Assembly: GCA_965140585.1 (NCBI GenBank)
Contig: OZ223269.1
Location: forward strand, 832,001 to 896,000
Source: Spirochaetia bacterium
GTDB taxonomy: Bacteria; Spirochaetota; Spirochaetia; UBA9216
Direction: 5' to 3'
DNA length: 64,000 nt
This document shows positions 51,456-61,060 of this stretch, piece after piece (the first letter of the stretch is position 1; each line of letters opens with the position of its first letter). The notes beneath the pieces are model-generated. The model ran no database searches. It was given only the letters and a program-made list of their open reading frames with translations, and was not told where the DNA came from. Made by a program: the position numbers and the translations under genes.

Positions 51456-52997
51456 TTAGTCATTCTCGGATGACATATCCAGAGTTTCAGTCTGTGTAAA
51501 GCGGTAATATTCGGTATCAGAAGGTTTGAAGCCATATATGCTTAACTCTCCCGGCACCATAACAAGTGTACGCTCGATAATTCTGTTTTTATTTTCTTCT
51601 GAAAAATCAATAGAAAAGGCTCTTGTATCAACTTCAATACCTGAATTATCAACAATTTTCAAACTTAAAACAGGCGTATCTGCTGAGTAAACCGCGTATC
51701 CGCCGGAAATCTCTTCAAAGCTGTTTTTCATGTGGAAGGATGTTCCGTAAAATTCGATGATATCTCCGGCATCACTTATATACTGCCCATTAAGCTCCGG
51801 TAATTCTATTGCCTCTGAAGCCTTTCGGAGGGTCTTGATGGTATCAAATTTTTCACGTTCTCCCATACGGTAGTAATTATCTGTCCAGACATCATTAGGT
51901 GAAATAACCCTGGTCTGATTGTCAATATCCTTGACTGTTAAACGTATCTCATCAAGGTTAACAATCCGGACATAAACTTCAATTTCTATATAATTTATTA
52001 TTTCATTCTGAGCACGTATATACAGAAGATTACTCAATACCTTGTACGAATTAGTCCATTTAAAGTTTTCCTGTATTCGGTCACTGTAAAATGTAATAGT
52101 CTCGGCTTTCGGGTCCATAAATACAATTATACTATTGTTTCCAGAGGACGAATTTTCGGTAAACCACGGTCCGTTTATATAACCGTAGAAATTTTCATCC
52201 GGGCCGCTGTAAATGTCTGCAAGCTGTTTTTCTTCTATGGTTGTATACTCAAGTTCTTCTTCTTTAAGCTTAATATATTTTTTCAGCGGGAAATCCCAGA
52301 AATAAATAGACTGAATAAGATTTATTTTTCCGTCGTTGCCTGATTTTTCAGTGGATGCAGAAATTGTATAGCTAACACCGTCTTTCTGGCCTGATTCGTA
52401 AGCCATGCTGCGTTTAACCGGAATAATCTCAATTGCTCCTGGCTGTTTAAGACTGAAAATAGAAGAATAATTAAGTCCGCTGCCACTGCTCTCATTATTT
52501 TTCCAAAATACATCGAGCGTTGTGTTTCCTTCTGAATCCCTTCCTGAACATACAATCTGATTTGAATGATCTCCGATTAAATCCTCCAGATAAACATGGA
52601 ATGACCTTCCGCTTGTTGCGGATGTAGTACCTTCCCAGGCTCTGACATAATCACCTTTGACATTATCATAATCTGCTACAGCTATATAAATTTCAAGCGC
52701 CGGATTCTGCCGGTTTTTAAGTACAATAATCTGCTCATCCGATGTATCAAGATCCAGATTGAGGTTAATAGTACTTAAAACAGTTTCATCGCCTTTGATA
52801 ACAATATTTGGTTTTGTTTCCTGAATACTGAAGCTGTCTTCATACTTATCATCATCTGAAATATTATCTTCATCAGGGGCAGGGGTAAGTTGAGTAACAC
52901 TTTCGGGTCTTTCGTAAACCTCGGAAGCTCTGTTACAGGAATATAAAGTGCTTAAAAGCATTATTACTAAAAAAACCAGTATATTTTTCTTTATCAT
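51456..52997 (-). CDS. Pallilysin (TP0751)-related adhesin-like lipoprotein
   Basis: Lipoprotein signal LSTLYS-C; NLDLDTSDEQI, EDLIGDH motifs; position between SPOR and VWA genes as recalled for Treponema. Confidence 0.7.
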   Translation of the reverse strand: MIKKNILVFLVIMLLSTLYSCNRASEVYERPESVTQLTPAPDEDNISDDDKYEDSFSIQETKPNIVIKGDETVLSTINLNLDLDTSDEQIIVLKNRQNPALEIYIAVADYDNVKGDYVRAWEGTTSATSGRSFHVYLEDLIGDHSNQIVCSGRDSEGNTTLDVFWKNNESSGSGLNYSSIFSLKQPGAIEIIPVKRSMAYESGQKDGVSYTISASTEKSGNDGKINLIQSIYFWDFPLKKYIKLKEEELEYTTIEEKQLADIYSGPDENFYGYINGPWFTENSSSGNNSIIVFMDPKAETITFYSDRIQENFKWTNSYKVLSNLLYIRAQNEIINYIEIEVYVRIVNLDEIRLTVKDIDNQTRVISPNDVWTDNYYRMGEREKFDTIKTLRKASEAIELPELNGQYISDAGDIIEFYGTSFHMKNSFEEISGGYAVYSADTPVLSLKIVDNSGIEVDTRAFSIDFSEENKNRIIERTLVMVPGELSIYGFKPSDTEYYRFTQTETLDMSSEND

Positions 52998-53001
52998 AGA
53001 T

Positions 53002-53994
53002 TCACACGAAGTATTTTCTAAGCATTTCTAACACTTTTTTGCGTATCTCTTCAAGTGGGAATTTACTCTTGAATCCTGCTGCTGTTTTATGACCGCCTCC
53101 TCCGAAAACCTGTGCAATAAAAGCAACATCAATATTACCTTTGGAACGAAGCGAACATCTGAGAATCCCCTCAAGATTTTCTTTAAAAAATATTGAAACC
53201 TTGATAGCCTCACTTTTTAAAGGCAGGTTTATCAGGGAGTCGGCCTCTTCATACATGGCACCGCTTTTAATAATGTCATCTTTGAGCATTGTTTGTATAG
53301 CAACATTGTGATCATAAAAGAACTCAAGAGTTGATAAAACTCTTGACTGAAGCATCAACGATGATATCGAATTGCTTTCATATAATTTTGAATATATGAA
53401 ATTAGGGTTAACCCCAAGACTTACACATCTTTCAGCAATAGAAAATGTTTTGGCTGTGGTTTTAGGATAGATAAAAGAACCTGTGTCATACACGATTCCC
53501 AGATAAAGTGCCTGTGCCATTGCAAGTGTAAGTTTCAGGTTCATGGCTTCAAAAAGCTCAAAAAGCATCTCGCATGTGGAAGAGGCTTCATTTTCAATAT
53601 GATTGGCTGATAAAACAGCATCACCGCCTTCATGATGATCAAAAATGAAAAAATCCTTAACTTTCGTGAGGATACAATCCTTTACAGCTCCGATATTATT
53701 AATATCGTTTGTATCAAGAATAATTAGAACCCAGTCTTTTATATCTTCAGGAAGAACGGCCTCATTGTTAAGAAGCTGAACTTCATCATCTGTATCGAGA
53801 AATCGGTATTTTTCTCCCATTGGATCGGCATTGAATATGATTGTTTGTTTACCTAAAGACCTGAGCGCATGACTGGCAGCTATTTCACTGCCTATTGCAT
53901 CTCCGTCTGGAGTTTCATGAGCGGTTAGTATAAATTTACTGTTGCTTTCGATAAAATCAATTATTGCCTGAAATCTCATTGCGTCTTTTTTCAT
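53002..53994 (-). CDS. nrnA: DHH/DHHA1 phosphoesterase (NrnA/Pde2-like)
   Basis: HETPDGDAIGS, FDHH, YDTGSF, CSLRS, GGGGHKTAAG. Confidence 0.9.
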   Translation of the reverse strand: MKKDAMRFQAIIDFIESNSKFILTAHETPDGDAIGSEIAASHALRSLGKQTIIFNADPMGEKYRFLDTDDEVQLLNNEAVLPEDIKDWVLIILDTNDINNIGAVKDCILTKVKDFFIFDHHEGGDAVLSANHIENEASSTCEMLFELFEAMNLKLTLAMAQALYLGIVYDTGSFIYPKTTAKTFSIAERCVSLGVNPNFIYSKLYESNSISSLMLQSRVLSTLEFFYDHNVAIQTMLKDDIIKSGAMYEEADSLINLPLKSEAIKVSIFFKENLEGILRCSLRSKGNIDVAFIAQVFGGGGHKTAAGFKSKFPLEEIRKKVLEMLRKYFV

Positions 53995-55120
53995 CCTTTT
54001 CAGCCGAAGCCCTGATGATATAATTTCTTATAATAATAAATGCTGCTACTGCTGCAGCAATAACTGCCAGAATTATTATAATTATAAGAAATTTTGAAGA
54101 AGTTTTGCTTCCATCTGCGGAATTATTTTGAATATTTTCACTGCTTTCCGTTGAAAATTTACCATTGTTTACTTCAATCTGATAATCAAAGACGGCAGGA
54201 ATAAATGGAGTATCACCAGAAAAGTTGAAGAGAAAAGAACCTGAATGTCTTCCGGGGGATAGTTCACTTGATAATTTAAGCGGTATTTTAACCTCTACAG
54301 AGGTTTCAGCTGGAATTTTTATTTCATAGGGTTCATCAAGAACTTCGTAGTTACTGCCCCGTTCCTGGTACAGTATTCTGCTGATCACCACAGTACGTTC
54401 ATCGCTGTATCCGTCACTCTCCAGACTGATATATATACTGTCATCTGAGACAGTAAAACCGGATGAAAGAATCCGTCCCAGGGTATCTTCTGCCGGAGTG
54501 GTTTCCGGAACATTACTGTTAAAATCAATTTCTTCATATGTGGTTAACAGCTCCTTTGAAAGCTCTTCAACAGCTGATTCACTGCCAACACCAAGAAGGA
54601 TGATTTTCCAGCCTTTTTTCTGAATAGTTTTTGTGTTTTCGAGAAAGTTATGATTAAAAGATCCGTCGGGGGAGTAGTATGGACTGTTTTCAGGAGCTTC
54701 CTGCTTTCCGTCTGTCAATAAAATAAGGTATTGTCTGCTGTTTTCAGTTTTATAAGCAGAAAGAGAATTTTCAAGGCTGTCCAAAGCATTCCCTATATCT
54801 GTAAAACGGCCGTCAGCTTTAAGGTTATGTAGATCATTTGATATCTGTTCAAGCCCCTTGAAGGTAAGTGTTTTATTAAAAACAACATCAGCCTTGCCAT
54901 AGAATTCAATTACAGTGAGATGGTCTCCCTCAATAAGAAAATTATCAATGAAATTTTCTATAATATACGCACTGACATCTTTAATTTTTTCAACCATCGA
55001 CTTGCTTTTATCAACAACAAGAAACATATCAATATTCTCAGTCCTTTTATCAGCATAGAGTGAGGCAGTGAGACCAGAAAATATTAATATAAAAAGAAAG
55101 AACTTGTATTTTTTAATCAT
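53957..55120 (-). CDS. VWA-domain membrane protein (TP0750-like)
   Basis: Signal peptide, MIDAS VDKSKSM, FTDIGNAL, LLTDG; C-terminal TM. Confidence 0.88.
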   Translation of the reverse strand: MIKKYKFFLFILIFSGLTASLYADKRTENIDMFLVVDKSKSMVEKIKDVSAYIIENFIDNFLIEGDHLTVIEFYGKADVVFNKTLTFKGLEQISNDLHNLKADGRFTDIGNALDSLENSLSAYKTENSRQYLILLTDGKQEAPENSPYYSPDGSFNHNFLENTKTIQKKGWKIILLGVGSESAVEELSKELLTTYEEIDFNSNVPETTPAEDTLGRILSSGFTVSDDSIYISLESDGYSDERTVVISRILYQERGSNYEVLDEPYEIKIPAETSVEVKIPLKLSSELSPGRHSGSFLFNFSGDTPFIPAVFDYQIEVNNGKFSTESSENIQNNSADGSKTSSKFLIIIIILAVIAAAVAAFIIIRNYIIRASAEKDEKRRNEISGNN

Positions 55121-55267: not shown

Positions 55268-57331
55268 ATGGGAAGCATAGATCTACCTAAAAGTCCAATG
55301 GTATTCCATCCTGAAAAGAGGAGTGCGGTGGGCTCCAGGAACTCTCTCGCTCAGGAAAGCAGGGACCAGCAGGCAGAAGTAGAAAGACTGCTCGAAGAAG
55401 AAGTAGATAAAGTCGTTAACCATATCAATGCCAAACTACCTGAAGACGTCCTCTCTAAATTGGATGTCATGGGTGGCTTAAAAGAGAAAGTTTATAACTA
55501 TTTCAACCAGAACTACCAGAATATGTTCAACCGTTACATAGTTACAACTGAAGATGAAATGGTTAAAAAGGTAAGAAACTTCATTGATAAAGAAGAAATG
55601 AAAGTTCTTACCAGGTACACCCCCAAAGAAATAGCAGCGCTGCTTGAAGAAGTAGGCGGTATGGACAGATTCAATACCGGTGAAATTGAGAAATCAATTG
55701 TTAATATGTATGGTCACCTTCAGGGGCATATACAGAGAGGTATGAATGATCTTGAAAACCTTACCAACTCACTCCTTAGACAGAAAACCGACGTTGGTGC
55801 TTTCATAAGAGGCGAGAATGCTTATTCGGTAGTTAAATGTTCATTCAAGGACAGTATCGAGAAACCAAAGACTGTATGCAACGTAAAGCTTTCAGTTAAC
55901 ATACTCGATTCCGAGCTTATAAGTCCTATTTTTCACTATCAGGCTACAGTTGAGTACTTAATCAAAGACCTTGTTTCAAAGCAGATTATTGATGCAATTG
56001 ACAAGGAAATTGAGAATCTTAAGGATGAAAGACTTGATAAGGGTCTTGAAGAACTTAATGACAGTGAAATCATCTTTCAGAAGATGGGTCGTGTAGAAAA
56101 TCATACCGCTGATGAAGTAAACAATGCAAAATCAAACAGGTATAAGTACATTGCCAAGAACATCATGGAAAAGGTTGAAGGCCTTAGAGCTGAGATTGAT
56201 CCTAATGAGTTCGATCCTCTGAACATCCGTGAAAATCTTAAGAAAATCATGGATATAGAAAATATCAGAAACAGAGGCTACAACACAGCAGTTAATTCAA
56301 TTACAAGTATTCTTGATACTTCAAAAATGGGTTATCAGTATATCGAGAACCTCAAAAATGCAAGAGAACTTGTGATTAGAGAGTATGAAGATACAGATGC
56401 AGCAATTCTTCCTGATGAAAGATATAACATCCGTCTCAAATACTACGACAATGCCCAGCTTATCGAAGAAAGAAAAGCTTATGATGTTCAGGTAAAATCT
56501 TTCGAGGTTGAAGTTGAACATGTATGGGATGTTCTTGAAATGGTTTACAGCGACGGTAAGAGATTCAAAGGTGTTGTTGATTTTAAAGATCTTTCCGACA
56601 GATACAAGAATAAAATAAAGAAGAACATCAAGGCAAAAACCGGTGATCCTCTCTACGAAGACATTGAAAAGAGCTGGGATGAAATATCTTTTGTAAGCGC
56701 AGCTGAAACTGAAGTTGAAAAAATGAACAGAACCTATGTTCTGGAAAAAGATAAACTTAAGAAAAAGCTTATTCTTATGAGAGACAAACTTCAGGATATG
56801 TACAGCTATAAGTACCCGATTCAGAGACGAGTACTTGAAGACAGACTTACTTTTCTCGAAGCTGAGTTCAATAAATTTGATTATCTTATCAATCCTTATC
56901 ATATTCAGCCAGGACTTCTTCTTGATGTTGATATTACTTCAATTAAAAGAAAGAAAGCTACTTTGGACGGTATGGCAAATGTTCTTAATGAATTCCTTCA
57001 TGGTGTTTCCAAAGGGTTCCAGGATGCGGCATTTGCAGCGTTCTCAAGAAGACGTTCTACTGTAAGAGAAGATATTGATATGAGTTTTGCTTCTGATCTT
57101 GCTGAAGATGATATGCTTAAGCAGAAATCTTTAGGTGAATCATATCTTGATATGCTTAATTCACCGGATGACAGTCCTGCACTGGCCGACACTACAATCA
57201 AAACAAAGCCTAAGGCTCCTGCTAAAAAGGCTGCACCGAAAACTAAAGCCAAGTCTAAGGGTGTTGTTGACAACGACAAGACTAAAACAAGGCGGGGCAG
57301 ACCAAGAAGATCAAATCTGGATACAATCTAA
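55268..57331 (+). CDS. cfpA: Cytoplasmic filament protein CfpA
   Basis: N-terminus [47 protein letters not shown] and FSRRRSTVR, typical of treponemal CfpA; coiled-coil rich. Confidence 0.93.
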
Positions 57332-57332
57332 C

Positions 57333-57370
57333 AAAAAATGCAGCCCCTCAATTTTTGAGGGGCATTTTTT
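57333..57370 (+). terminator. Rho-independent terminator after cfpA
   Basis: GCCCCTCAA-ttt-TTGAGGGGC followed by ATTTTTT. Confidence 0.8.
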
Positions 57371-57384
57371 ACCGAGGGAACATA

Positions 57385-58407
57385 ATGAACGATACTTTAC
57401 GCGTCTATGATCATCTGTCTGACAGGAATGGTTTTAATAATGCATTAATTCATTTTCAGTCTGTAATGGGTATTATCGGCGATTTTGAAGATGGATACAA
57501 TCTGGCTGATATATTGAATGATCTTGTGAATGAGAAGGAAATTAAGCAGGATCAGATGCCGTCGATAGTGAGTGCACTTCTCGTTGATAAATATTCCTAC
57601 AACTTTAAATCCGGTAATTTTATAAACAGTTTAATTGATTTTGAATATATCGCTTCTTCATTGGAGAAGCTTAAATCCTATGATTTACTGATTTCTTATA
57701 TCCACCCGGAGCTTGGATATAATGTGATAAATCCTAAGAATCCTGATAGCTGGAAAAATGTCTCAGAGTTTAGAAAAAATGAATATTTCACAGTGTATGC
57801 CGGCAAATTCACTGATGACATGACCAACTCTAAAGAGGCTGAAATGTTAATTCAGAAGGTTTTTGACCTTTTTGAGGGCAAAAAACTTAAACTTCCTGAA
57901 AATCTATTAAAAGGTAAGTATAAGTTTAAGACTCTTTCAGAGGAACCGGAGAAGAAGGCTGCACCGAAGAAAGTAGCCAAGAATCCGGTTAAAAAGACTT
58001 CAGCTTCCCAAAAAGCCGAAACATCATATCAGGATGAAGAACATGAAGAGGTCGCAGCCAGCGGACCTGTGAATACTTCAAAAATGACACCTTTATATTC
58101 AGTTCCGGTAACCAATGAACTCTTTCATAATGGTAATGTCGAAGCCTGGAAAAGGATAATTCAAAGTTTTAAAGTTAAAAACCCAGACCTCGAAGTATAT
58201 ATATTTTATGATGGTGAAAGAATTCAGAATATTGCATCATTGTTTAAATGGGGTAAAGTTAAACATGGAAGTGCTATTCTGTTTGCTGTAGCAGGTGAAA
58301 ATATTCAGGATGTTGCAAAACTTCAGAAATATTTAAAACAGGGAGCGAGCCCTCAGTTTGAAGCCTTCTTAAGGTTTCCGGTTAATACTGTTTTAAATCT
58401 CTTCTAA
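57385..58407 (+). CDS. Hypothetical protein with K/A/P-rich linker and C-terminal HPr-like domain
   Basis: Start moved to ATG 57385 (GAGGG RBS); C-terminal VPVTNELFHNG..EVYIFYDGERI..GKVKHGSAILFAVAGE resembles HPr. Confidence 0.75.
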   Translation: MNDTLRVYDHLSDRNGFNNALIHFQSVMGIIGDFEDGYNLADILNDLVNEKEIKQDQMPSIVSALLVDKYSYNFKSGNFINSLIDFEYIASSLEKLKSYDLLISYIHPELGYNVINPKNPDSWKNVSEFRKNEYFTVYAGKFTDDMTNSKEAEMLIQKVFDLFEGKKLKLPENLLKGKYKFKTLSEEPEKKAAPKKVAKNPVKKTSASQKAETSYQDEEHEEVAASGPVNTSKMTPLYSVPVTNELFHNGNVEAWKRIIQSFKVKNPDLEVYIFYDGERIQNIASLFKWGKVKHGSAILFAVAGENIQDVAKLQKYLKQGASPQFEAFLRFPVNTVLNLF

Positions 58408-58423
58408 TAATAAGGGTTATTTC

Positions 58424-61060
58424 ATGGATATCAAATCGAATATATATTTTATCAGTAAGAATAAATCATCAAAAAACGCACCTGATCAGAATAAGATAGG
58501 AATCAGAGGGCAGCAGACTTATGACCTCATTTCTATGGGAATGCCTGTAGTTCCCGGTGTAATACTCGGAACAGAAATAACTTCAAATCTTGATGATGTT
58601 GATGCAGTTATTGATGCTCTTAATCCCTTTTTTAATGATTATACAAAAGAAAGCGGTAAAACCTTCAATAGTGATAAAAATCCGATGCTTCTTAAACTGG
58701 TTATCAGTTCAAATCTTGCTATAGCAAGGTATCCTGTCCTTCATAATTTCGGACTTGCGGATAACACGTTTGAAGGCTTCAGTGAGTTTGTAGGTAAAGA
58801 TTTCGCATATCAGGAAATTCTTTTTATGCTCAACGGTATTTACGCTATTGAAGAAAGAATTGCTGAACTTAATGAAGATACTAAACTTGCTAATAAATAT
58901 CATCAGTACATAAAGGAAACCGGACGTTTTCTTAGTAAGAACATGAAGGCTGATGAATGTAAGAAATATCTTGAACAGAAAAAGAAAGAACTTCCTGAAG
59001 AGCTTTTCAGTACCGCCAGGACTCAGCTTGCAGCAGTTTTAAAACGTATAAGCTACTTGATTAAACTGGAAGACAGTGAAAATACCGGTGTTGCAGTTCT
59101 TATTCAGCCTATGGTTTACGGAAACTATGGTAAAGACAGCTATTCAGGATATTTCACTACAAGAAATACAATTACCGGGAATGGTGTTCTCGAAGGTGAA
59201 TATTTTACAAATAAATTTAATTCACCGGAATCAAGCGGAAAATCGATCAAAAATATTGATAAAAAATACCTTAAACAGTTTGAAGATATAGCCTTAAAAC
59301 TTGAAACTACATATCTTGATATCAGGAAAATTGGTTTTACTATTGAAAACGGAAGACTGTCGCTAATAAATCAAAATCCGATCAGTGAAAAATCAACCAG
59401 GGCTGATATTCAGCTTCTTCTGGACCTTAAAAATAAAAAACTTATAAATGATACTCAGGTTATTAATGCAATAAAACCTTCTGAACTAAATGAGCTTCTG
59501 CACCCGGTTATAGATCTTGATTCGGTAAAATCCATGCCGAAGGTAGAAGGCGGTATTTCTGGTGCTCCCGGCGCCGCAGTCGGAAGGGTCTTCTTTTCTA
59601 CTGAGGGACTTATTGAAGAGTATAAAACTTCAAGAATGAATGATATTGATGACAGATTGATTTTGTGTCTTACATCCAGTTTTGCAGAAGATGTAAAGGC
59701 AATAGAAATTGCTACCGGCGTACTTTCTTCCGAAGGCGGCTATTCGGCTCATGCTTCAGTAGTTGCAAGACAGTACGGTAAAGTATCGCTTGTTAATCCT
59801 GATATTAAAATTAGCGGTAAAAAGGCGACAATAGGCGGCAAGACTATTAAAGAAGGTGATTTCATAACTCTCAATGTTCCTGAATTTGATACCCCCTCAA
59901 TCGTATGGGGTAAAGCTCAGCTTATAAAACCGGATCCTGCCAAGAACGGTCTGATAGATTTCCTTAAAATTGTGAAAGAAAATATAAAAGGATTTGATAT
60001 CCGCGCAAACTGTGATAAGGCTGCAGATGCAAAACTTGCTCTTGCATTCGGTGCGGACGGAATCGGGTTATGCAGAACAGAGCATATGTTTTTCGATGAA
60101 AAACGTATCAATGTGTTTCGTGAAATGATTTTTGCCGAGACCTCTGAAGAGAGAGCAAAAGTTCTTAAAAAACTTAAACAGATGCAGAAGAAGGACTTTC
60201 AGGATCTGTTTAAGGTAATGAACGGAAAGGAAATTAATATCCGCCTTCTTGATGCACCTCTGCATGAATTTCTACCCCATAATACTGCTGAGGTAAAAGC
60301 ATTTCTCGATTACCTTAAAACTTCCGGGACGAAAATTACTGAAAAACAGCTTAGGGAAAAATCAGAAAATTTAAAAGAATTCAATCCCATGCTTGGTCAC
60401 AGAGGATGCAGAATAGCAATCAGTTATCCGGAAATTTATCAGATGCAGATCGAATCAATCTTTGAGGCTGCTTACGCTGTTAAATCAAAAGGTGTAGATG
60501 TAAAACCTGAAATAATGATACCGCTGATTATGAATGAAACTGAGCTTAAAATGATTCTTTACGGAAAAAAAATCGAGGGTTCTCATTATAAAGGGCTTGT
60601 TGAAATAGAGCAGAACGTACGTGAACGGCTGAAAGTAAAACCGGTTGATTATAAAGTCGGAACAATGATTGAACTTCCTGCAGCGGCTCTGTCTGCTGAT
60701 AATATTGCAAGATATGCACAATTTTTCTCTTTCGGCACCAATGATCTTACACAGACAACATTAGGTCTCTCAAGAGATGATTTTACTTCATTTATGCCTG
60801 ACTATACACTTTACGATATTATGAGCGGTAATCCTTTCAGGACACTGGAACGGCCTGTAAAAGAACTTATTGCTACCGCCGTTCAGCGGGGAACTATAAC
60901 AAGGCCTGACCTTAAGAAGGGACTTTGCGGAGAACATGGAGCAGCACCCGAGAATATTGAGTTCTGTATTGAAAACGGACTTGATTATGTATCATGTTCA
61001 ACCTATTCAGTACCTATTGCTGCTCTTGCAACGGCTCAGGCGCTGCTTAAGACGAATTAG
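58424..61060 (+). CDS. PPDK-like PEP-utilising protein with degenerate nucleotide-binding domain
   Basis: GGYSAHASVVAR phospho-His domain; GIGLCRTEHMF, EFNPMLGHRGCR, FSFGTNDLTQ, GLCGEHG intact; ATP-grasp motifs altered. Confidence 0.9.
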   Translation: MDIKSNIYFISKNKSSKNAPDQNKIGIRGQQTYDLISMGMPVVPGVILGTEITSNLDDVDAVIDALNPFFNDYTKESGKTFNSDKNPMLLKLVISSNLAIARYPVLHNFGLADNTFEGFSEFVGKDFAYQEILFMLNGIYAIEERIAELNEDTKLANKYHQYIKETGRFLSKNMKADECKKYLEQKKKELPEELFSTARTQLAAVLKRISYLIKLEDSENTGVAVLIQPMVYGNYGKDSYSGYFTTRNTITGNGVLEGEYFTNKFNSPESSGKSIKNIDKKYLKQFEDIALKLETTYLDIRKIGFTIENGRLSLINQNPISEKSTRADIQLLLDLKNKKLINDTQVINAIKPSELNELLHPVIDLDSVKSMPKVEGGISGAPGAAVGRVFFSTEGLIEEYKTSRMNDIDDRLILCLTSSFAEDVKAIEIATGVLSSEGGYSAHASVVARQYGKVSLVNPDIKISGKKATIGGKTIKEGDFITLNVPEFDTPSIVWGKAQLIKPDPAKNGLIDFLKIVKENIKGFDIRANCDKAADAKLALAFGADGIGLCRTEHMFFDEKRINVFREMIFAETSEERAKVLKKLKQMQKKDFQDLFKVMNGKEINIRLLDAPLHEFLPHNTAEVKAFLDYLKTSGTKITEKQLREKSENLKEFNPMLGHRGCRIAISYPEIYQMQIESIFEAAYAVKSKGVDVKPEIMIPLIMNETELKMILYGKKIEGSHYKGLVEIEQNVRERLKVKPVDYKVGTMIELPAAALSADNIARYAQFFSFGTNDLTQTTLGLSRDDFTSFMPDYTLYDIMSGNPFRTLERPVKELIATAVQRGTITRPDLKKGLCGEHGAAPENIEFCIENGLDYVSCSTYSVPIAALATAQALLKTN

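Follow-up and report, generated by a model that had tools for sequence, protein, structure and literature searches.

What reaction, if any, is left to a protein that bears the name of a metabolic enzyme but has lost the residues of one of its two active sites is the question raised by an open reading frame for a homologue of pyruvate, phosphate dikinase (PPDK) in a Spirochaetia bacterium (contig OZ223269.1). The frame lies at 58424..61060 on the forward strand of the window, i.e. the whole stretch of 64,000 nucleotides that was analysed (positions 832,001 to 896,000 of the contig), is intact and encodes 878 residues. An initial annotation, made from the sequence alone, had described the product as a pseudo-PPDK, with a dead ATP-grasp domain, an intact half for the reaction with phosphoenolpyruvate (PEP) and an automatic label that is probably wrong. 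In the following, it is argued that the protein is likely not a dikinase, that its PEP half is likely intact and its label likely wrong, and that 'dead' is not the right word for its N-terminal domain. More tentatively, with a probability that we set at about 0.45, the protein may be a PEP-driven phosphotransferase that resembles Enzyme I and is tied to the cytoplasmic filament system of spirochaetes.

Domain organization and family membership

The PPDK-like protein aligns end to end with the solved PPDK structures of C. symbiosum (1DIK/2DIK; residues 17-876, E = 1.6e-139) and keeps the three-domain order of PPDK, namely an N-terminal nucleotide domain, a swivel domain with the catalytic histidine, and a triosephosphate isomerase (TIM) barrel that binds PEP and pyruvate. 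The ATP-grasp-derived, remodelled N-domain (residues 1-345; 58424..59458) scores 23.1 bits with the Pfam model PPDK_N, below the cut-off of 27; the linker and phospho-histidine swivel domain (residues 346-505; 59459..59938) reaches 28.7 bits with PEP-utilizers, the model of the mobile His domain, just above the cut-off of 23.1; and the TIM barrel (residues 506-878 and the stop codon; 59939..61060) is matched by PEP-utilizers_C with 230.8 bits (E = 2.6e-68). As a whole, the protein scores 638.5 bits with the NCBIfam equivalog model of PPDK, TIGR01828, and thus falls below the membership cut-off of 843.45, which supports the view that the name 'pyruvate phosphate dikinase' is probably wrong. With TIGR01417, the model of Enzyme I of the PEP-dependent phosphotransferase system (PTS), the score is 98.3 bits (cut-off 341.7) and the match is confined to the PEP domain, residues 651-864.

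A second, intact ppdK, the presence of which the initial annotation had raised as a question, is found elsewhere in the source genome (G000; 4.85 Mb, 98.5% complete): the canonical enzyme encoded on contig C4 scores 1340.5 bits with TIGR01828 and has all the classical motifs. The PPDK-like protein is 39% identical to it overall and 23% in the N-domain. The genome also encodes genuine HPr and Enzyme I genes.

Remodelling of the nucleotide domain

The motifs of the N-domain were compared through alignments to the C. symbiosum enzyme (HMMER) and to the canonical PPDK of the source genome (MAFFT), and their conservation was followed in an alignment of 115 clade members (the window protein and 114 listed relatives not shorter than 850 residues, five shorter partial matches being left out) together with the canonical paralogue. 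The GGKGANL site reads G26-I-R28-G-Q-Q-T, K22 being replaced by arginine, and the clade has G-[IL]-R-G here, with the arginine in 115/115. At the SVRSGA site, L92-V93-I-S-S-N is found, R92 being replaced by V93, and all 115 sequences have K-x-V in place of S-V-R. The PGMMD loop is gone, with A-I-A-gap-R-Y-P-V instead and, across the clade, Y-P for M-D (replaced in 115/115). N-K-F265-N-S-P-E-S-S-G stands for AQGEDVVAG, the loss of which is accompanied by a deletion of four residues; both the deletion and the phenylalanine in place of the glutamine of AQGED are universal (115/115). The D-x-E-FTIE site has become K302-I-G304-F-T-I-E308, with lysine for D321 and glycine for E323, the latter position being occupied across the clade by arginine in 95, glycine in 17 and histidine in 3 of the 115 members. 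Finally, the LQTR site reads N316-Q317-N318-P319. In the HMMER register Q335 is kept as Q317 (invariant, 115/115) and R337 is replaced by proline; in the MAFFT register, shifted by one residue, Q335 corresponds to N316 and R337 to N318. The assignment of Q335 and R337 is therefore ambiguous by one position. The equivalents of R337 and E323 are variable inside the clade (R/K/S/N/I and R/K/G/H, respectively).

All the substituted ATP-site motifs that the initial annotation had quoted are thus present in both alignments, and its reading needs adjustment only in detail. The loss of R92 stands, but the residue aligns to V93 and not to I94; the lysine at position 22 is gone, but its change to arginine is a conservative one; and R337 is replaced in either register, whereas Q335, also counted as lost, is kept as Q317 in that annotation's own alignment as in the HMMER one. 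The roles of K22, R92, D321, E323, Q335 and R337 in PPDK are reportedly known from the mutational work of Ye et al. 2001 (J Biol Chem 276:37630). For a related swivel enzyme, rifampin phosphotransferase (RPH), the accessible part of PMC4844700 gives K22 as essential.

Only 16 of the 102 N-domain positions that are invariant in canonical PPDKs are retained by the clade, which has instead its own set: at 55 N-domain positions, many of which lie in the motifs of the former active site, identity among the 115 members is 98% or more, and the clade-specific invariants include R28, K91, V93, Y103-P104, F265, E308, Q317 and K323. The alignment with spirochaete orthologues therefore confirms the substitutions and, at the same time, reveals an alternative residue set conserved clade-wide rather than the private decay of one gene. 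The canonical residue set of the ATP/Pi site is not found in the N-domain, which may still bind a nucleotide.

Conservation of the PEP-dependent half and selection on the gene

The picture is quite different in the rest of the protein. GGYSAH, GIGLCRTEH, IRLLD, NPMLGHRG, GTNDLTQ, LCGEH and MIELPAAAL, the motifs that had been listed as retained, are all present. Translation confirms the codons of the catalytic His443 (59750-59752), in the motif GGYSAHASVVAR, and of Cys835 in the PEP domain (60926-60928), and both residues are invariant in 115/115 clade members, as are RTEH, RLLD, NPMLGHRG, E750 and N773-D774. Accordingly, the clade retains 15/38 canonical-invariant positions in the His domain and 79/108 in the PEP domain. 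The regulatory threonine is replaced by serine or alanine, and the arginine of E-x-P-R-A-A by alanine or valine. The resemblance of the last motif to that of Enzyme I, also pointed out initially, is borne out by the Enzyme I paralogues of the source genome, which read E-x-P-S/A-A, like the E-x-P-A-A of the PPDK-like protein and without the arginine of PPDK; it is weak evidence that fits an Enzyme-I-like picture.

Comparison with a very close relative (L083; protein 98.3% identical, synonymous divergence, dS, about 0.6-0.7) gives ratios of nonsynonymous to synonymous substitution (dN/dS) of 0.020, 0.008 and 0.009 for the N-, His and PEP domains, respectively. Among 18 genomes holding both copies, the mean pairwise identity of the N-domain is 41.9% in the clade versus 62.3% in the canonical enzymes, while the corresponding values are 60.1% versus 57.4% for the His domain and 62.9% versus 60.7% for the PEP domain; within the same genome, the PEP domains of the clade copy and of the canonical copy are on average 49.5% identical. 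Taken together, the invariant motifs, the identities and the dN/dS values indicate that the half of the protein that transfers phosphate from PEP to histidine is as constrained as in the real enzyme, so that the claim of an intact PEP half is upheld. The N-domain, with its own invariants and a dN/dS of 0.02, appears repurposed and not decaying. What stands of the 'dead' ATP-grasp domain is, therefore, the absence of the canonical ATP and Pi residues; its constraint, its 55 conserved positions and its vertical inheritance (see below) do not agree with the term. A decaying pseudogene or a relic under relaxed selection was also considered, and is ruled out by the intact frame, the dN/dS of the N-domain and the same 55 positions.

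The PEP domain also carries a conserved clade-specific insertion at about residues 712-724 (60557..60595), in which 19 diverse clade members all have G714, K715, E718, G719 and G724 and which canonical PPDKs are without; it could be a new interaction loop.

Distribution and ancestry of the clade

When the N-terminal 400 residues were compared with 5.8 billion proteins, 1124 of 7999 scored candidates matched at E <= 0.001. The best 120 of these matches are all about 880 residues long, come from Spirochaet* sources, are 43-67% identical in the N-terminal half, and go by the name of 'pyruvate, phosphate dikinase' or 'putative PEP-binding protein'. The gene bears the dikinase label, which probably misstates its function, in at least hundreds of spirochaete genomes.

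In a sample of 151 Spirochaetota genomes searched with the N-terminal half, the scores are bimodal: a clade member, scoring 199 bits or more, is present in 59 genomes, while canonical N-domains score at most 113 bits, and a single copy (in G078) is intermediate at 145 bits. A canonical PPDK above the cut-off is present in 112/151 genomes; of the 59 that bear the clade, 54 keep a full one. The other five are a Treponema pallidum-type genome that lacks it (G102), two incomplete genomes (G017, 73%; G148, 85%) and two with canonical fragments at contig ends (G010, G140).

A quick IQ-TREE search with 20 clade and 19 canonical sequences recovered each group as monophyletic (SH-aLRT 100), the branching of the clade mirroring that of the canonical enzymes. 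A recent horizontal acquisition is ruled out by this mirrored topology. The gene is, judging from these sequences, a member of an old, vertically inherited clade of PPDK paralogues of the Spirochaetota, the TP0746/TDE0844 family.

Two variants of the PPDK-like protein were encountered in the survey. One, of about 965-972 residues, occurs in seven genomes (G044, G056, G104, G018, G119, G032 and G126; families f8, f22 and f30; L031), and the N-domain query aligns to it in two segments that adjoin near query residues 140-215, pointing to some 90 extra residues within the helical part of the N-domain. The other is a very divergent copy in an otherwise normal cassette (L033; G078:C2:20000-33564), with G-R-L-G for G-I-R-G, 29% identity in the N-terminal half and a terminal branch length of 1.75, and it may represent a lineage in which the N-domain changes again or is being lost.

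A conserved gene cassette with cfpA

The genomic setting of the gene is nearly constant. In the window it is the third of three genes, all on the forward strand, following cfpA (55268..57331), which encodes the 687-residue cytoplasmic filament protein A (NCBIfam NF040882, cfpA_ASD, 1187.9 bits versus a cut-off of 500, profile positions 1-605), and a gene here called c2, of the TP_0747 family, which ends 16 nucleotides before it. Of 20 loci from 20 diverse genomes, 19 have c2 immediately before the PPDK-like gene and 18 have cfpA immediately before c2. With c2 as bait in 80 further named loci, which are the closest relatives and hence not mutually independent, the PPDK-like gene directly follows c2 in all 79 cases that could be tested, and cfpA comes before c2 in 74 of 75 such cases. 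In one locus (L020) the pair of c2 and PPDK-like gene is kept although cfpA is elsewhere. Among the 151 genomes, 58 have both cfpA and the PPDK-like gene, 90 neither, 1 only the latter and 2 only cfpA; the exceptions are G048, with the PPDK-like gene only, G105, with cfpA only in an 80% complete genome, and G078, with cfpA and the very divergent copy in its cassette.

In Treponema denticola the three genes, TDE0842 (cfpA), TDE0843 (hypothetical) and TDE0844 ('pyruvate phosphate dikinase, putative'), are repressed together according to the accessible part of PMC3914990, and cfpA mutants show filamentation and chromosome condensation according to that of PMC3398590. With near-constant neighbours of this kind, one being CfpA and the other predicted to be HPr-like (see below), a kept PEP half and a remodelled ATP half, phosphate probably goes from PEP to a protein and not into the synthesis of ATP.

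Between cfpA and c2 lies a terminator-like hairpin (57343..57363, forward strand; a 9-bp stem with 6 G-C pairs, then a T-run), recognized by a consensus scan and in the sequence, which overlaps the TTG at 57355 given as the start of c2 by the mechanical list of open reading frames; it is probably an attenuator that would lower the expression of c2 and the PPDK-like gene relative to cfpA. CfpA itself is about 80 residues longer than the 605-position model, the excess being a Lys/Pro/Ala-rich tail (57100..57331) that ends in R-G-R-P, an AT-hook-like motif, and the linker of the c2 product (57940..58075) has the same composition. Both could be tails that bind DNA or other polyanions, a role in keeping with the chromosome condensation of the cfpA mutants.

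Predicted HPr-like domains in the c2 product

The c2 gene (57385..58407) encodes 340 residues from an ATG at 57385 preceded by a GAGGGA ribosome-binding site. By precomputed assignment, its product and all 120 listed relatives belong to the Pfam family PF27497 (version PF27497.1, 'TP_0747_N'), a family of 3216 'hypothetical' proteins. An AlphaFold model of the full-length protein (alignment of 20 sequences; mean predicted local distance difference test score, pLDDT, 77) shows two confident alpha/beta domains and a disordered linker: a helical N-terminal part (residues 1-70) is followed by domain 1 (residues 72-167; nucleotides 57598-57885), the Lys/Pro/Ala linker (residues 185-231) and domain 2 (residues 234-324; nucleotides 58084-58356).

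In the model, both domains resemble HPr, the small phospho-carrier of the PTS. In a Foldseek comparison of the model with 350,542 Protein Data Bank chains, HPr occurs throughout the top 50, with probabilities up to 0.99 and E-values of 0.05-0.25. VIA-align superposes domain 1 on HPr with Z 7.5-8.1 (root-mean-square deviation 2.0-2.4 over 79-81 of 83-85 residues) and domain 2 with Z 7.0-7.2, and in a scan of 48,161 representative chains, independent of Foldseek, the top four matches of the full model are HPr chains (Z 8.0-6.5). The result is reproduced when the C-terminal domain is modelled by itself (44 sequences; pLDDT 89.3; predicted template modelling score 0.84), for which Foldseek ranks 1-10 are all HPr (probability 0.80-0.99), as are the top 4 of the 48,161 chains in VIA (Z 7.2-6.5, 78-81 of 84-88 residues). 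In domain 2 the elements follow one another as they do in HPr (strand, helix, strand, strand, helix, strand, helix). On the basis of these models, the HPr-like fold is moderately supported. Homology to HPr at the level of sequence was considered separately, and is not supported by the Pfam, NCBIfam and hhalign comparisons, nor does any Foldseek E-value reach 0.001.

Helix 1 of domain 2 has a candidate phospho-acceptor at its N-terminus, His248 (codon 58126..58128; NELFH248NGNVEAW). This residue, in the motif NELFHNGNVEAW directly before the helix, is invariant in 20/20, 44/44 and 120/120 sequences, is with its surroundings the most conserved feature of c2, and falls, depending on the offset of the structural alignment, at position 14 or 15 of HPr, in which His15 is the phospho-histidine. 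From this modelled position, c2 may be inferred to act as a phospho-carrier through His248. A prediction of the complex of residues 1-505 of the PPDK-like protein with full-length c2 gave scores of 0.01 and 0.00 versus a mark of 0.32, a result that weighs neither way.

The case of Treponema pallidum

The T. pallidum-type genome (a single contig of 1,139,633 bp, 99% complete) has the same cassette, with cfpA of 678 residues, c2 of 344 and a PPDK-like open frame of 901. The variants reported for TP0746 of T. pallidum Nichols in the accessible part of PMC10013896 (nucleotide 810772, A869T; nucleotide 811414, P655S) fall exactly on codons 869 and 655 of this frame, and TP0746 is thereby identified as a member of the PPDK-like clade; c2 is TP_0747 and cfpA is TP0748, the latter being named as TPANIC_0748 in PMC8525777. 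The reaction thought 'most likely' for TP0746 in the available text of PMC10013896 is PEP + AMP + PPi to pyruvate + ATP. Should TP0746 not act as a dikinase, current views of how the syphilis agent balances its energy and obtains its pyruvate will need revision.

A search of the same genome revealed PEP carboxykinase (PEPCK_GTP, 544 bits) and the oxaloacetate decarboxylase beta-subunit (OAD_beta, 504 bits), while PEPCK_ATP was not found in it. The two enzymes would form a bypass from PEP to pyruvate, so that the notion that TP0746 must act as a PPDK is weakened. Its Enzyme I homologue (C1:625304-627259) has an open frame in which only the C-terminal half matches well (267.9 bits, positions 259-565), the N-terminal part being weak and fragmentary (41 and 32.5 bits). 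Enzyme I is said to be a pseudogene in T. pallidum, as reported by Gonzalez et al. 2005.

Proposed mechanism and alternative explanations

In the Enzyme-I-like reading, the C-terminal TIM barrel would bind PEP, phosphorylate His443 of the swivel domain and release pyruvate, a step that the sequence conservation supports well. The N-domain would have kept its ATP-grasp-derived fold with the residues for the ATP phosphates, Pi/PPi and Mg exchanged, so that the interconversion of AMP + PPi and ATP + Pi would not take place, and would serve as a conserved docking or ligand site. The protein would work with the co-encoded CfpA and c2, the latter from the same tight bicistronic unit, and, by analogy with Enzyme I and HPr, phosphorylated His443 might hand its phosphate to the invariant His248 of the modelled domain 2 of c2, which is the least certain step. 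Such a relay would make the filament system, with its link to cell division and chromosome structure in T. denticola, respond to the cellular PEP/pyruvate state. Taken to its end, this would amount to an unrecognized PTS-like phosphorelay, from PEP to His443 of the TP0746 family, to His248 of the tandem-HPr-like TP_0747 and to the CfpA filament, by which PEP/pyruvate would control assembly, division or the nucleoid; T. pallidum would then lack a genuine PPDK, and the final, ATP-yielding step that is assumed for its glycolysis would not exist in that form. The full chain is somewhat doubtful. To our knowledge, no regulators or partners of the treponemal cytoplasmic filament were known before, and c2 and the PPDK-like protein offer two strictly linked candidates with testable chemistry.

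Several observations weigh against assigning the protein this role. It is without the helical HPr-binding subdomain of Enzyme I, its homology is to PPDK throughout, and biochemical data on any clade member were not found in the searchable literature, which leaves out most subscription journals. As to the carrier, c2 has no match in the local Pfam (E <= 0.1, PTS-HPr included) and NCBIfam libraries, and hhalign probabilities of its domains against 30 spirochaete HPr sequences are not significant (0.6% for the C-domain and 6.6% for the N-domain). The structural likeness is itself of limited strength, since the calibration of the tool ranks Z values of 7-8 as 'middling', the Foldseek E-values are 0.03-0.3 with none at 0.001, and the next fold after HPr, the aIF2-alpha C-domain, follows at Z 6.1, a margin of only about 1 Z. 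Furthermore, His248 is followed by N-G-N versus A/S-R-P after the phospho-histidine of spirochaete HPr, and domain 1 has no conserved histidine at the equivalent place. On the side of the nucleotide site, the change of K22 to arginine is conservative, the elements Q-x-M-V-[FY]-G-N and T/S-R around the adenine region are common to the clade and canonical PPDK, and the Mg-ligand glutamate is dispensable in RPH, the E297A variant of which is still active according to the accessible part of PMC4844700. Lastly, in the T. pallidum-type genome neither a canonical PPDK nor a pyruvate kinase was found on searching, so that the clade copy is the only PPDK homologue there, a status for which continued synthesis of ATP by the protein would account most readily.

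This last point is also the best argument for the view that the protein is a nucleotide-dependent, PEP-utilizing enzyme with a rebuilt ATP-grasp site, be it a PPDK of unusual ligands or an enzyme that passes the phosphate of the histidine to ADP, AMP or another nucleotide in a net pyruvate-kinase-like reaction, its link to cfpA reflecting a local energy supply or mere gene order. It has in its favour, besides the conservative K22R and the shared adenine-region elements, the strong purifying selection on the N-domain, the most conserved stretches of which are the former motifs of the nucleotide cleft; moreover, Q335 may persist as Q317, the arginine or lysine that most clade members have at the position of E323 could replace the metal, RPH E297A remains active, and the T. 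pallidum literature, as far as the available text of PMC10013896 goes, assumes that TP0746 yields pyruvate and ATP. Yet R92V, the loss of the PGMMD loop and of AQGEDVVAG, and the four-residue deletion are universal, only 16% of the canonical-invariant positions of the N-domain survive, and the variability of the equivalents of R337 and E323 within the clade would be odd for catalytic phosphate ligands. The gene tracks cfpA and not glycolysis, 54 of 59 clade genomes keep a full canonical PPDK, and the only genome truly without one has the carboxykinase and decarboxylase bypass. On balance a rebuilt nucleotide site of this kind is unlikely.

The cassette and the co-occurrence would apply equally to a PEP-sensing regulator or phosphotransferase with a target other than His248 of c2, such as CfpA, the canonical HPr or PTS-Ntr proteins, or a small molecule held by the N-domain, c2 being then an adaptor to the filament. 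The intact PEP-to-histidine half agrees with it as well, domain 1 of c2 indicates that HPr-like folds can be non-catalytic here, an HPr signature is absent from c2 at the sequence level, the genome carries real HPr and Enzyme I genes, and VadK provides a precedent, being in the accessible part of PMC13400623 a regulatory kinase of PPDK descent with metabolic enzymes as binding partners. What makes another target rather unlikely is that the motif of His248 is the most conserved feature of c2 (120/120) and lies within one residue of the HPr active site, and that the bicistron of c2 and the PPDK-like gene is kept in the locus where cfpA is elsewhere. A pseudoenzyme devoid of catalysis, i.e. a structural or bridging component of the filament ribbon on a PPDK scaffold, would account for the strict linkage to cfpA and for the lost nucleotide-site residues, and 'bridging and anchoring components' of the treponemal filament figure in a title cited in the accessible part of PMC3398590; it is very improbable in view of the phospho-histidine and the full set of PEP-site catalytic residues, invariant in 115/115, and of His and PEP domains as constrained as in real PPDKs, which a pure scaffold would not need.

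Neighbouring genes and further homologues

Divergently upstream of cfpA, on the reverse strand of the window, are genes for a protein with a pallilysin beta-barrel domain (513 residues; 51456..52997), a DHH/DHHA1 phosphoesterase (330 residues; 53002..53994) and a protein with a von Willebrand factor A (VWA) domain (387 residues; 53957..55120). The VWA and pallilysin-like genes (clusters c8 and c5) also adjoin cfpA in treponemal loci (L014-L016), a neighbourhood that we take to be that of TP0750/TP0751 in T. pallidum. Since the two genes are found beside cfpA in both settings, a neighbourhood of the TP0750/TP0751 type appears to be conserved in the non-treponemal spirochaete from which the window comes. 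In one large sub-lineage (L019, L021, L024-L027 and L029) two other genes on the same strand, c4 (about 250-290 residues, 6 loci) and c3 (about 360-400 residues, 7 loci), lie directly upstream of cfpA and may be parts of an extended filament operon.

A good PPDK_N domain is also found in a third protein of the source genome (C6:735580-736686; open frame of 998 residues, 125 bits), a candidate PEP-synthase-like or phosphotransferase-like enzyme, and an open frame of 85 residues matches only the end of PPDK_N (C7:691287-691481). Besides an intact pyruvate kinase (C6:133281-134243), the genome has a second homologue of this enzyme split over two adjacent frames of 234 and 264 residues (C9:384514-385475), possibly by a frameshift or as a pseudogene.

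Relation to known systems

In the same literature search, with most subscription journals outside it, no paper was found that calls the clade non-canonical, links it functionally to cfpA or describes TP0747 as HPr-like. The system may, however, be set beside several better known ones. With PPDK, the clade shares full-length homology, domain order, the catalytic histidine and the PEP-site residues; it differs in forming a separate group below the TIGR01828 cut-off, in which K22, R92, the PGMMD loop, AQGEDVVAG, D321 and E323 are replaced, and in being encoded with cfpA and c2, whereas the gene of canonical PPDK stands alone. With Enzyme I and HPr of the PTS (TIGR01417; PF00381), it would share the route of the phosphate, from PEP to a swivel histidine and then to a histidine at helix 1 of a small carrier, and it does share a homologous PEP domain, the E-x-P-A-A form of the motif and, for the candidate carrier, HPr as the best structural match. 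The N-domain, on the other hand, is ATP-grasp-derived where Enzyme I has its helical HPr-binding subdomain, c2 consists of two HPr-like domains with a helical N-terminus and a disordered linker and has no detectable sequence similarity to HPr, and, instead of sugar permeases, the genomic partner here is a cytoskeletal filament protein.

VadK of Mycobacterium tuberculosis keeps the ATP-grasp and His domains of PPDK and is without the PEP domain. Going by this domain composition, the present clade, with its PEP and His domains kept and its ATP-grasp domain remodelled, is the mirror image of VadK. As a PPDK descendant gone from central metabolism to regulation, VadK (Rv1127c), described in the available text of PMC13400623 as a PPDK-derived regulatory histidine kinase that autophosphorylates and interacts with other proteins, is nevertheless the closest precedent. 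The general principle is that of the swivel phospho-histidine enzymes, which, as stated in the accessible part of PMC4844700, shuttle between two remote sites and can have one substrate domain exchanged in evolution. In RPH and PEP synthase the ATP-grasp site works and the other end has been changed or kept, while here it is the ATP-grasp end that has changed. If the proposal is true, the PPDK-like protein is a swivel-histidine enzyme with its PEP end kept and its ATP end rebuilt, a mirror of VadK and RPH and a parallel to the logic of Enzyme I.

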